Assembly (NCBI GenBank): GCA_040285745.1
Contig: JAUFOR010000008.1
Span: 1,302,001-1,366,000 of the forward strand
Origin: Barthelona sp. PCE
Lineage: Eukaryota
DNA length: 64,000 bases
Direction of reading: 5' to 3'
Shown here: positions 21,044 through 49,179 of the stretch, in pieces
Layout: every line of letters starts with the position of its first letter
How positions within the stretch are numbered: the stretch's first letter is position 1
Position numbers and translations under genes: made by a program
The notes under the pieces: generated by a model
Seen by the model: only the letters and a program-made list of their open reading frames with translations
What the model was told of the DNA's origin: nothing
Database searches by the model: none

Positions 21044-24000
21044 TTATTGATCTTCTTTAGCTTCAATAATCTTGCAATCAATCAAAAAGTCCTTAAATTG
21101 AGACTTATTACTATTTTCATCACTTTCTAAAAAGCTTTCTATCCAATTATGCAATACACGCTCTGTAATTTCACAATTTTCTTCTATAATCTCCAACGGC
21201 AAATTCGTTACCTCCACCGAGTCCAAAAAGCACTCAATAGGCAATTCCTCTGTATCCTTTGGCAATCCTAATAATTTAATGAGTTGAAACTCAATAGTAG
21301 CCTTCATATGTTCTAGTTTCAAATGTTCTATGAAGAAATTATCGTTTGCTGTGTGTGTGTTCATAAGGAAAAGTAAAAATATCTGTCTACATATCGTAAT
21401 TAAAGCAAATATCGGTTCGGCAGAGATTGCAACTAATAAAGTTTCGAAAAGAGTAACACCAATGATTTCGTGATAATCAGATGAAACATAGAAGAGGAAG
21501 ATAAGGAAAGAAGTGAACCAATGCGATAATTTCTCCAATAACAATGCATTAGGGGTCTTAAGTAATTCTACAATGATTGCAATAAATGTCTCCATGATTT
21601 TGAAAGAGTTCTCATCGTCCAACAAGAAGAGGATCCTAAAAGCAATGTGATTCATCGGAACATTGTACGACTCGGTTCTGAAAAATTCATTCAGCATTGA
21701 GTTAACATGCGCTCGTATTTCATAGTCAAGGGCCTGTTTAATTGTGTCCGTTAAGGCTTCAGAATCATCAAAACTGGCTTCTACGCTTTCGATATTGACT
21801 GCTTCCAAATTCTGTTGTTGTAAAAAGTGAAGCACACCCTCAAGACATGGATGCCCAATCCCCATAAGCACTTCCTCAGTGCCCACGCGTATTACCGGCA
21901 CAACAAACGAGCGAAGCCACTGGCAAAGCAGGAATTCGTTGTACGACATTACTGTTTCTAGCTCAGGTAGTGATAAATCACTTGTTATGTGTACGGAGAG
22001 CCCCAAAAATCCCCAAATAGCAGATACAAGATCCACACAGTACACTTCTTCAACAAAAGAGTCGAGGTTGTCGTCCAAATCCTGAAATTCAATTGGTTGT
22101 TCCAGATAATCGTTTGTTCTGAAATTCTTGACAAAGCTCTTATCCACCTCGATATTGACATCCGAAAAGACAAGGAAACCGTATTTAATACCTAACAATG
22201 GTGAAATTTCGCCGTTATTGAACACACGAGAGACGTAGTCAATAATTGACGACAATACATCGCTGATACTAACGATATACTCCTTAACAGCATCCTTCAA
22301 TTCCTCTTGCGTTGATCTAATGACCGCACGCACCAACTGCAATAGTTTTTGTACGGTAAAGTACAGAAGACTGCGGGTAGCAATGGACTCTTCAGTTGTA
22401 TTAGAATTGAGAGCTAAATCATCCAGGCTGAGCTCAGTGAGCGCCTCATCAATATCCTTGAAGTAAGAAAAGATAACGTCAGAAGAATCCAACTCGGAAA
22501 AGGGTAATAAGGATAGAACACACTCAAGTAAAAGCACTTCCTCTGATGGGCGGAGAGCACCGTCGTATTTGATCAAAAGTGGAAGGGCGGGGAGAATTGT
22601 GTGTCGAAGAGATGTGATGAGGGAAGAGAGCACAGTAAGTGACTTGCGGCGGAGTGCAATAAGGTCTTGTGTGACGACGTCGGTTTGTAACGAACTGAAA
22701 TGAAGAATAGTCTCAACAATAGAGTCTATGGAAACAACATCGATAGAGACGCCGCTCCACCTGAATATGAGGCAGCAACTCTTGAATAGGTCGAGGCAGC
22801 GGGTGAGTGGGAGCAGTGCTGTAAACTGTTGGACGTTTGTTAGTAACCATTCGAGCAGATCGTTAACGCAGGACGCAAGATCACCACGCAACTCAGGGGA
22901 GTCTTCTGCAATGCAACAGTTATCCATTGCAGGTTCTGCCAAAGCGTTTGTTAACTGCGTCACTACTGTCTCGGTTACACTGCAACATGTCTCCAGTAGT
23001 TGATACTCATCGCTGAGATATATGACATCGTCCATATCCGCGATTGCTACGATGCGGTCAACAGTTTCCGAGATAATGTACTCCAGCACCATGGGGTACA
23101 TTTGTGTAAGTTTTGATATGACGATCTTTCCCATTTGCCTCATGTCTGATACGTGTTGAGACAGGAAATGATCACCATGTTGGAGTGTGAAACCCGCATG
23201 GGCAGAAAGGAATTGCCGCGAGACGCTTACGGGGTACTTTAGCGAAGCCCTTAGCAGGAGAGGTACGATGGCACAGAATGAATCAATGTCAGCCTCGATG
23301 ACAGATACAAACGGAGATTTAAAAGCCATTACGAACTTTAAAAGCTTCAAGAGTTCTTTGAAGAACATGGGTGATGGGTGTACCTCAGCGATGTTAATCA
23401 TCTGGGTAAGGCATGTTTGGAAAACAACCTCACCACCTTCGGGGTCTTTCTTAAACGCTTTGTAATGTTTTTCAAACAGCAATCTGTACACCTCCATCAG
23501 AGAAACGAGCTTGAAGTAGTCATCAGAATAGGCGTTGATGTTTTCCGGGGATTGATGCTCATCTTTGGTGTAATAAGACAGCCATTCTTCAGGCATGCTC
23601 GCTATGTCTTCCAGTAACAACTGAATATTGGGCAACGATCGTTTCGATAGTTTTTTGGAGACAACTACCAACAGTGTCGTATGTACATATCTAACAAAAA
23701 GCTTATTGATGGAGAGATACAAAAGTATAGTAATCCATTCCTTTGTGAGTGCGTGCTCTAACTTGGAGCTCTTCAAAAGTGACTCGTAACACCGTAGAGA
23801 GACAACAATCATGCGGGTGGCGTCTGTATTCTCGTATTCAGATTCTTCAACCACATCATTACCACAGCCCTGAACAACGTCGTAGAGAAAGGATGCTAGG
23901 TCTGACTCAAGTGAAGCCAAGAAGTCTGCAAATCCAGCTTTGTTGTTCGAATGCATGATGTACCGTGATGCACGGCAACGGAATAAATCAGAGAGAATAA

Positions 24001-24457
24001 GAATAAGAAGTTCTAGAAGAGGGATGTTGGAATCGAGTTTTAAAGATTCTATAATATGTGTGCAGAAGTCTTCGACGGTCGGATCACTGAAAAATATGCA
24101 GATATATCGACTGATTAGATGAGATAGTTTTTCACGAACAAATACAATCTCACAAAACTCGTCTTGCCCTGCAAATAGTTCAAAAATGCCCATGAGAACC
24201 GCGAACACCTTGGATACATCACGTGCAGCATCGTCTCGTCGTTCGTTTAACACTGATTCAAGAATAAACAGTGAGAAGTGACAGTAGTTCTCATTTGAGA
24301 GGTCAAATAAGTTTTGACAGCAATATAGAAGGTCATCTATTGCATAACTGCTGATGAAACCGTTAATAAATGCTAAGGAATCTTGATCGCTATTGTATGC
24401 TTGCTCGATCGCGTAGCGCACTGTATCTAGAATGTCTTCGTCTGAACTGTCAACCAT
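21044..24457 (-). CDS. Karyopherin-beta/exportin-like protein (exportin-5-like)
   Basis: 1,137-aa acidic helical protein; N-terminal AIEQAYN, HFSLFILE and FVREKL resemble IBN_N/Xpo1 motifs. Confidence 0.65.
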   Translation of the reverse strand: MVDSSDEDILDTVRYAIEQAYNSDQDSLAFINGFISSYAIDDLLYCCQNLFDLSNENYCHFSLFILESVLNERRDDAARDVSKVFAVLMGIFELFAGQDEFCEIVFVREKLSHLISRYICIFFSDPTVEDFCTHIIESLKLDSNIPLLELLILILSDLFRCRASRYIMHSNNKAGFADFLASLESDLASFLYDVVQGCGNDVVEESEYENTDATRMIVVSLRCYESLLKSSKLEHALTKEWITILLYLSINKLFVRYVHTTLLVVVSKKLSKRSLPNIQLLLEDIASMPEEWLSYYTKDEHQSPENINAYSDDYFKLVSLMEVYRLLFEKHYKAFKKDPEGGEVVFQTCLTQMINIAEVHPSPMFFKELLKLLKFVMAFKSPFVSVIEADIDSFCAIVPLLLRASLKYPVSVSRQFLSAHAGFTLQHGDHFLSQHVSDMRQMGKIVISKLTQMYPMVLEYIISETVDRIVAIADMDDVIYLSDEYQLLETCCSVTETVVTQLTNALAEPAMDNCCIAEDSPELRGDLASCVNDLLEWLLTNVQQFTALLPLTRCLDLFKSCCLIFRWSGVSIDVVSIDSIVETILHFSSLQTDVVTQDLIALRRKSLTVLSSLITSLRHTILPALPLLIKYDGALRPSEEVLLLECVLSLLPFSELDSSDVIFSYFKDIDEALTELSLDDLALNSNTTEESIATRSLLYFTVQKLLQLVRAVIRSTQEELKDAVKEYIVSISDVLSSIIDYVSRVFNNGEISPLLGIKYGFLVFSDVNIEVDKSFVKNFRTNDYLEQPIEFQDLDDNLDSFVEEVYCVDLVSAIWGFLGLSVHITSDLSLPELETVMSYNEFLLCQWLRSFVVPVIRVGTEEVLMGIGHPCLEGVLHFLQQQNLEAVNIESVEASFDDSEALTDTIKQALDYEIRAHVNSMLNEFFRTESYNVPMNHIAFRILFLLDDENSFKIMETFIAIIVELLKTPNALLLEKLSHWFTSFLIFLFYVSSDYHEIIGVTLFETLLVAISAEPIFALITICRQIFLLFLMNTHTANDNFFIEHLKLEHMKATIEFQLIKLLGLPKDTEELPIECFLDSVEVTNLPLEIIEENCEITERVLHNWIESFLESDENSNKSQFKDFLIDCKIIEAKEDQ

Positions 24458-24474
24458 ATATACGCTTCAAATAG

Positions 24475-24697
24475 GTGTGTTCAATGCTAGAAAGGCATGA
24501 TATTGGGAAGTAGAACTGATCCTAAACCTGTTCGGTATTATGCATAAGGGATGGCTTCCTCCACCCGATTTGGTCATCTGGTCACAAAATAATTGGCAGC
24601 AATTGATACAGTGAATGGACCTGCTTTCGGCCTTTGAGAAGAGTTTGATTCAAGTATTATTTGGTGCCTGTTACGAACTTTAAGCATCGGAATACAC
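24475..24697 (+). ncRNA. Candidate ~220-nt structured RNA (telomerase-RNA-like hypothesis)
   Basis: Five colinear helices pair the two ends of the intergenic region, with G-U pairs favouring the + strand; CCTAAACCT at 24521-24529 lies just inside the helix. See findings. Confidence 0.45.
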
Positions 24698-25348
24698 TCA
24701 CTTTACAATAGGAAATACAGATAAAATAAACGTTGTTATGACAGACAAGAATGTTACAAAAACAACAAGCGGTCTGTGCTTTTCAAGACCAACTGTAGCA
24801 GCAATTCGCACGTTTTTAGCTCCACACTCAAGTACAGAAGTGTGAATACCAAATTCATCAATAATAATTGGTGTTGGCAAATCTATCAAACGATATGGAT
24901 TTTTTCCAACTGTTTGATAACGCAGGTGGATGGGAAAGACAGCTTCTTCTCCAGACTTAACACGAATAGCCAGATTAGTTGTGTTAGCGCGGTGTTTTGA
25001 AACTTCTATATCATAGAAGCCTGCAAACTTAAATTCTGCAATATGAAACTTGTTTTCTCGAAGAAGTTCATCGAAATCAATTATGAAATTGCTATCAAAA
25101 TTGAAAACAAGCCAACAAAAGGCACTTTGAGATTCAGTAACAACATGCAGGTTTTTATGAAAACCATGACCCAAAGCACGCATCATAATCGTTTTCTCAG
25201 GATATTCTCCTTTTGCAAATCCAGAACGATCATGTAGCAATGAAAACGGATGAATATTGTGTATGCTTCCCTGAATACGTACTCCGTCAATAGCTGCTGC
25301 TCCTAAAAGAGCAATGACCCACCATAAACAAAGGACTTTTTTGAACAT
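24698..25348 (-). CDS. PIGX: PIG-X/Pbn1 subunit of GPI mannosyltransferase I
   Basis: Signal peptide, FIIDFDEL, DIE, PIHLRYQ, P.P, TVG and a C-terminal TM helix. Confidence 0.85.
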   Translation of the reverse strand: MFKKVLCLWWVIALLGAAAIDGVRIQGSIHNIHPFSLLHDRSGFAKGEYPEKTIMMRALGHGFHKNLHVVTESQSAFCWLVFNFDSNFIIDFDELLRENKFHIAEFKFAGFYDIEVSKHRANTTNLAIRVKSGEEAVFPIHLRYQTVGKNPYRLIDLPTPIIIDEFGIHTSVLECGAKNVRIAATVGLEKHRPLVVFVTFLSVITTFILSVFPIVK

Positions 25349-48873: not shown

Positions 48874-49179
48874 ATGCCACCAAAGAAAGTAATATCCCGG
48901 GCAAATATTGAGGCTCATTTTGGAAAGCCACGCGCGGACGCAGCAAAAGCTTTAGGGGTTAGCGTTTCAACGCTTCGGAAGCGCTGCAGGGAATATGGTA
49001 TCAAAGTTTGGCCTTACACCAGAGCAGATATCGATCAGCCAAGGCCAAACAACAACGCTCACGTGTTAGAACCTCTTAATACAACGATAAATCAACAAGT
49101 TCTAGATTTACTATGTGAAATTTATCCTCATCTATATGATAATACAGGACTACATCACTTCAGTGGCATGCCTATGTGA
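48874..49179 (+). CDS. Small RWP-RK domain transcription factor
   Basis: I..HFGKPRADAAKALGVSVSTLRKRCREYGIKVWPY; ATG at 48874. Confidence 0.9.
   Translation: MPPKKVISRANIEAHFGKPRADAAKALGVSVSTLRKRCREYGIKVWPYTRADIDQPRPNNNAHVLEPLNTTINQQVLDLLCEIYPHLYDNTGLHHFSGMPM

Follow-up and report, generated by a model that had tools for sequence, protein, structure and literature searches.

A candidate structured RNA between an exportin-like gene and PIG-X in Barthelona sp. PCE lacks a template for the repeat found at contig ends

The locus

Does the short gap between an exportin-like gene and PIG-X in Barthelona sp. PCE hold an RNA gene, and if so, of what kind? The gap lies within a 64,000-nt window (C8:1302001-1366000), here meaning the whole stretch of DNA that was analysed, from an assembly of 10.2 Mb in eight contigs. 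The window is gene-dense and carries long uninterrupted ORFs. A first-pass annotation had described nearly all of the gap as a folded + strand RNA and had proposed it as a telomerase RNA, or otherwise as a divergent RNA such as an Alu-less signal recognition particle (SRP) RNA.

Two - strand genes bound the gap (24458-24697, 240 nt; Table 1). No ORF of more than 60 codons was found within it, and the sequence of the candidate RNA is present as a single copy in the genome. Of the names first given to the neighbours, PIG-X is borne out by its Pfam match, whereas the exportin-like protein has no match in Pfam or PDB and owes its name to a resemblance to exportin-5/Xpo1-type proteins in language-model features (0.95). 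The reading favoured below is that of a stand-alone + strand non-coding RNA gene of ~220 nt, which would be antisense to both neighbours; the case for it is about evenly balanced.

Table 1. Coordinates of the candidate RNA, its parts and neighbours, and of related features elsewhere in the genome. Positions with no contig or locus prefix are those of the window.
Feature	Position	Strand	Remarks
Exportin-5/Xpo1-like karyopherin	21044..24457	-	1137 aa; start codon 17 nt from candidate RNA
PIG-X/PBN1	24698..25348	-	216 aa; PF08320, E 2.5e-08 (Pfam)
Candidate structured ncRNA	24475..24697	+	~223 nt; predicted fold of closing helix and three hairpins
B-box pattern match	24479..24487	+	Weak match to consensus; no A box found; may be chance
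Closing helix, 5' strand	24475..24494	+	8 + 5 + 4 bp; pair probabilities 0.88-0.99
Closing helix, 3' strand	24678..24697	+	Pairs with 24475..24494
Hairpin H1	24495..24543	+	13-bp stem, mean P 0.94, five G-U; internal loop; 3-bp apical stem
CCTAAACCT, proposed template	24521..24529	+	H1 apex; no match to the genome's terminal repeat
Hairpin region H2	24548..24579	+	Ill-defined; either of two folds, P 0.43-0.46
Hairpin H3	24590..24673	+	84-nt irregular stem-loop, ~32 bp; helix P 0.80-1.00
Terminal repeat, C4 3' end	L013:2890-2999		12.2 perfect copies of TGGTCTATA
Terminal repeat, C8 3' end (the window's own contig)	L017:2918-2987		7.7 degenerate copies of TGGTCTATA
Terminal repeat, C7 3' end			More degenerate run of TGGTCTATA
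TERT	C3:19934		Intact, 914-aa frame; RNA-binding domain above Pfam cut-off; ~20 kb from contig end
U2 snRNA	C1:606049-606221		52 bits; branch-point motif and Sm site

The predicted fold

All of the sequence words quoted in the first-pass annotation occur where it placed them. Its helices have a mixed outcome. On the + strand, the candidate folds at -66.5 kcal/mol, and the thermodynamic model prefers a 17-bp closing helix around three predicted hairpins. The two outer colinear helices that had been proposed (24475-82/24690-97 and 24484-88/24683-87) belong to this fold, with pair probabilities (P) of 0.96-1.00, and an added segment (24491-94/24678-81, P 0.88) lengthens them to 17 bp. The 3' strand of the helix stops at the base adjoining the PIG-X stop codon. 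By contrast, the three inner helices (24493-98/24664-69, 24499-504/24653-58 and 24513-17/24642-46) drop out at P 0.000 each; forcing them yields -51.8 versus -66.5 kcal/mol, a cost of ~15 kcal/mol. Since a protein-bound RNA may leave its thermodynamic fold, this result weakens the colinear model and does not by itself exclude it.

The pseudoknot proposed downstream also finds no support. Its stem (24578-84/24604-11) has P 0.000, and four of the five bases of its GGCAG loop are paired in H3, in a thermodynamic model that cannot score pseudoknots directly.

The overall fold is kept at 20-37 C, when a second parameter set is used and when flanks are included; the outer helices persist after 100 nt of flank are added, and H1 does not change with temperature or parameter load in any of the runs. 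The output labelled Turner 1999 was identical to that of the Andronescu run and does not count as independent evidence. G-U pairs account for 14 of the 76 pairs. The apical loop of H1 has 8 nt (24514-21) and could pair with 24580-84 over 5 bp, which is too short for a claim. In a transcript with the ends proposed here, the termini would pair into the 17-bp helix, closing a junction of three hairpins, and such paired ends would protect the RNA.

Telomerase RNA and the contig ends

The first-pass annotation read CCTAAACCT as a telomerase template for TTTAGG telomeres and predicted (TTTAGG)n at the contig ends. No tandem TTTAGG was found in the 3 kb from each of the 16 ends. Genome-wide, (TTTAGG)4 and (TTAGGG)4 both occur zero times, and the one (TTTAGG)3, with one mismatch allowed, is internal and lies in an open frame reading Pro-Lys-Pro-Lys. 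The repeat that does terminate contigs is a 9-mer, (TGGTCTATA)n, found at 3 of 16 ends (perfect at one, degenerate at two), with all three arrays sharing one direction when read towards the contig end. Exact 12-mers of one TGGTCTATA phase are confined to the C4 and C8 ends (14 of 14 in the genome). The other 13 ends have no terminal repeat; they finish in subterminal repeats that several ends share, or in other sequence, which indicates that most telomeres were not reached by the assembly.

TGGTCTATA is probably the telomere repeat of this genome, and a repeat other than TTTAGG is the very outcome that the first-pass annotation had set as refuting its telomerase reading. The 9-mer is unusual as a telomere unit, with two adjacent G only, and among the literature matches listed for it none concerned telomeres by title. 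The intact TERT gene together with the terminal repeats suggests that telomerase very probably makes this 9-mer. According to excerpts of one study, a telomerase template exceeds the telomere repeat by one base or more (PMC12133305), so that a 9-nt repeat needs at least 10 nt. The longest match of the candidate to a template for TGGTCTATA is 4 nt on the + strand and 5 nt on the - strand, and the candidate therefore cannot template this repeat. Beyond the fold, an 8-nt match covers the exportin start.

The word CCTAAACCT itself is present, but five of its nine bases are mostly paired. TTTAGG has served for finding Cryptosporidium telomeres, as excerpts of PMC8848321 describe. A 9-nt match to (CCTAAA)n turns up in 3 of 2332 genomic windows of 223 nt, and one to any of seven repeat units in 60 of 2332; the match in the candidate is best read as an uncommon coincidence.

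Like the small telomerase RNAs of ciliate or plant type, the candidate falls in the right size range and has an end-closing stem, and the genome encodes TERT. It differs from telomerase RNAs in lacking a template for the contig-end repeat and a supported pseudoknot, and in placing its putative template in a hairpin apex. A telomerase RNA with CCTAAACCT as template is thus left with the intact TERT, the rarity of the (CCTAAA)n match and the 13 bare contig ends in its favour. It would hold only if the 9-mer arrays were satellite DNA of the subtelomeres and none of the 16 ends reached a true telomere. Set against it are the missing TTTAGG arrays, the 4- to 5-nt template match, the partly paired template, and a boundary helix and pseudoknot with P of about zero. 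This reading is extremely improbable.

The 9-nt terminal repeat is long enough for the true telomerase RNA to be hunted by its template. A word search with the complement of TGGTCTATA, which lists every run of at least 16 nt in the genome, found one internal run, of 17 nt, at C1:890268-890284 (-), in a 115-nt gap with a + strand gene on either side; composition predicts 0.007 matches of 17 nt. The 221 nt around it fold no better than shuffles (z -0.5), and an RNA here would overlap coding DNA. The run may be a telomerase template but could equally be an interstitial repeat or bind a protein; as a lead for such a template it is better than the candidate RNA. A 13-nt match (1.4 repeats), a typical template length, lies at C3:1294050-1294062 (+) within a 250-nt gap; about two such matches are expected by chance, and its fold has z +0.1.

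Two subterminal families are shared among contig ends, the first at 7 of the 16 and the second at 5, both 0.5-3 kb long and 65-99% alike. On C8 the first, which may be a retroelement, directly adjoins the terminal repeat.

Evidence for an RNA gene

Whether any RNA gene exists here is a separate question, which folding statistics and composition address. The comparison with dinucleotide shuffles that the first-pass annotation had suggested came out in favour of a + strand fold, at z -2.9 to -3.0 (0 of 200 and 3 of 1000 shuffles as good), with z +0.5 on the - strand. When the ORF-bounded gap is taken instead, 12 of 600 shuffles equal its fold, 14 of 600 reach its number of confident pairs, and 5 of 600 match the length of its closing helix, a measure picked after the fold was seen. 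The whole-gap shuffle p is ~0.01-0.02. A window of this kind holds about 12 such gaps on two strands, or ~24 gap-strand tests, so that one p of this size is fairly likely. In a local-fold scan of the window, the candidate ranks 52nd of 243 clusters of at least 150 nt, with 51 scoring better, and its energy is by itself unremarkable; the top local folds are mostly within ORFs.

The comparison set comprised every gap of 150-350 nt, 31 in number, from the window and from 200 kb sampled across seven contigs. The candidate has the longest confident end-to-end helix of the set (17 bp; runner-up, 11) and the fifth best z, where the controls U3 and RNase P score -4.3 and -0.8. Its GC content (0.41) is the third highest, and it is the only gap that lacks an A5 or T5 run. 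The latter two signs are independent of the shuffle test and atypical of spacers in this genome.

Other signs count against an RNA gene. No T4 run occurs on the + strand between 24400 and 24760, while T runs come after the RNase P, U3 and U2 genes of this genome. With 17 nt to the exportin start, the promoter of the candidate would be internal or inside coding DNA, and the exportin promoter would lie within the candidate. RNase P and U3 have a TTGCA motif upstream, but only 7 of 24 genes share it and U2 lacks it, which makes its absence beside the candidate uninformative.

These data bear directly on the simplest alternative, that there is no RNA gene and that an ordinary spacer, made up of the PIG-X 3' end and the exportin promoter and 5' UTR, is somewhat GC-rich and folds well by chance. 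The rank in the local-fold scan, a shuffle p that precedes correction for the ~24 tests per window, the missing terminator-like T run, the missing family motifs and a closing-helix measure chosen after the fact all fit such a spacer. A chance fold accounts less well for the atypical composition, for helix ends that coincide with the gap ends and for the clear strand asymmetry. It is quite possible, though not the reading we favour.

A second alternative is a DNA element of fold-back (MITE-like) type that has decayed, the closing helix being formed by its terminal inverted repeats. The genome does have a dispersed fold-back repeat of ~225 nt, which is the best-folding of the 31 gaps. However, that repeat folds on both strands (z -5.3 and -6.5) and is dispersed, unlike the candidate, which folds on one strand and is single-copy, with no target-site duplication visible. 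A fold-back origin is accordingly very unlikely.

The dispersed element itself has 10-bp terminal inverted repeats at C2:1407037-1407262 (L045:7037-7262), where no Rfam match was found. Further copies are at L163:2841-3066, L044:3569-3783 and L037:916-1071; copies lie within the rDNA unit (98%), next to a tRNA cluster (75%) and close to U3 (78%).

Taken with the fold, composition gives moderate support to the claim that a structured + strand RNA fills the gap, against which the rank of 52 among 243 counts. We place the probability that the candidate is a real RNA at even or slightly above.

Which RNA the candidate might be

The possible families are considered here on the reading of a + strand RNA gene. 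Rfam scans of the locus gave chance-level matches only (lowest E 1.4, outside the gap; within it, 3.2 and 5.8). Homologues were also sought. The locus of the exportin-like protein was confirmed in none of 78 pattern matches among metagenome contigs, for the BRO1 protein of the window 7998 scored candidates gave no match at E <= 1e-20 apart from the protein itself, and a two-motif DNA pattern found 92 metagenome loci, all scored, the best at 24 against a shuffled maximum of 23. These searches found no homologue from which covariation could be read. The candidate lacks the defining motif of every family that was tested by motif.

SRP RNA merits the closest comparison. The genome encodes SRP19 on C5 (L063:1408-1848; PF01922, 70 bits, with PDB matches too), yet none of four Rfam SRP models gives a match in it (25-52 candidates scored each); the same models matched in 7, 11, 13 and 4 of 14 control genomes. 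Excerpts of a study of basidiomycetes report that a non-canonical helix 8 hid their SRP RNAs, and describe helix 8 as a symmetric loop (an A-C pair with an adjacent G) below a short apical stem and a tetraloop (PMC4605306). The SRP RNA S domain (helices 5-8), including the basidiomycete forms in those excerpts, has a four-way junction and paired ends, as does the candidate in its predicted fold. The closing helix would then correspond to helix 5 and the three hairpins to helices 6, 7 and 8, and H1 bears an internal loop of G.A / A.A / A.C type next to its 3-bp apical stem.

In other respects the candidate departs from the S domain. The helix 8 descriptor has no match on either strand, the helix-8-like loop sits in the first hairpin and not the last, the closing helix is short at 17 bp, and there is no Alu part. 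The helix 6 tetraloop is absent from the preferred fold, in which neither H1 nor H3 has a tetraloop; positions 24590-24603 could form a 5-bp hairpin with a GCAG loop, though in the ensemble H3 takes its place. Over a 261-nt stretch at the locus, none of the SRP models gives a match at E <= 10. A genome-wide search with the helix 8 pattern gave 196 matches, and of the 100 listed the two with clean stems that were followed up are coding. With few candidates scored and 100 of 196 matches listed, a canonical SRP RNA may sit elsewhere. That the candidate is the missing SRP RNA, rebuilt and Alu-less, is an improbable sub-case of the RNA-gene reading. If it were, the loss of helix 8, a motif otherwise regarded as universal, would be quite unexpected, and it would account for an SRP19 gene in a genome where four SRP models give no match.

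Box C/D snoRNAs carry C and D boxes at their ends, and H/ACA snoRNAs a hairpin-H-hairpin-ACA layout, in each case with a guide duplex; the candidate shows neither pattern. It has no C box of a box C/D snoRNA; an H-box pattern at 24584 would suit an H/ACA snoRNA, but ACA is missing after H3. The best duplex with pre-rRNA is 13 nt, versus 11-14 nt in 12 shuffles, so that a guide role is not seen. A heavily diverged housekeeping RNA of sno/scaRNA type, its gene not found in this genome, is a slim prospect. The genome does hold two U3 copies on C2 (E 1.5e-4, below cut-off).

RNase P and MRP RNAs share CR-I and CR-V, which form P4, in MRP RNA as a pseudoknot that follows P3. The candidate resembles both in its P1-like closing helix and its length but differs in missing the CR-I and CR-V patterns, and the RNase P RNA gene of this genome sits at C2:2098224-2098505 (54 bits). 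The MRP model RF00030 gave three weak matches elsewhere in the genome and none at the candidate.

Among spliceosomal RNAs, U1 shares a closing helix and three hairpins with the candidate. Its hallmarks are a 5' splice-site binding word and an Sm site. On the + strand, the candidate has neither this word nor a U-rich Sm site 3' of the fold, and U1 was rejected; RF00003 found no match in the genome. The likeness to U5 lies in the long irregular stem-loop, H3, whose apex agrees at 7 of 11 positions with the loop I consensus, YGCCUUUUACY at a stem apex, given in excerpts of PMC6461891. That level of agreement is reached by 2253 of 2332 genomic windows, and by 188 of 400 when an apex is required. 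With a chance-level loop I and no Sm site 3' of H3, U5 was likewise rejected; RF00020 has no match in this genome, nor in any of the control genomes, which makes that search uninformative. For U6, with which U4 forms two helices, the expected motif is missing from the single model match, at E 0.25, and searching with a pattern taken from this genome's U2 found nothing. Two further resemblances, between the H3 apex and the 5' end of U2 and between the - strand and an Sm site, did not hold up either. Diverged MRP or U1/U4/U5 RNAs, taken together, have only a small chance of accounting for the candidate.

The U2 snRNA of this genome has a 5' end that differs from the usual. The spliceosomal RNAs may be strongly diverged here, given this odd end and the failure to find U1, U5 and U6.

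SRP, MRP, U1, U5, U6 and telomerase RNAs are all missed by the Rfam models in this genome, although the genome-wide searches for the first five scored 15-52 candidates each, which does not establish absence. If transcribed, the candidate might be one of them. Within the RNA-gene reading, we place a lineage-specific RNA first, though it is unlikely when judged by itself. Slightly less doubtful is the wider pairing of a new lineage-specific class with a four-way junction, or an SRP RNA rebuilt until the helix 8 motif was gone. The RNA, if real, would most likely serve as the scaffold of a ribonucleoprotein, presenting helices and loops to proteins, and not as a template or base-pairing guide. 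The orphan RNAs of nucleomorphs described in excerpts of PMC6461891 are comparable in being intergenic, structured, 150-220 nt long and without a family. Those RNAs were shown to be expressed, whereas the candidate is a prediction from sequence and fold.

Other features

Two further observations concern other loci. A GC-rich, well-folding gap at C1:501012-501344 (z -3.3/-3.6) may be a second RNA candidate; it has no Rfam match at E <= 5 and no second copy among the loci compared. Within the window, positions 48874-49171 (+) carry an ORF of fewer than 100 codons whose product, by a motif, may resemble an RWP-RK domain protein.
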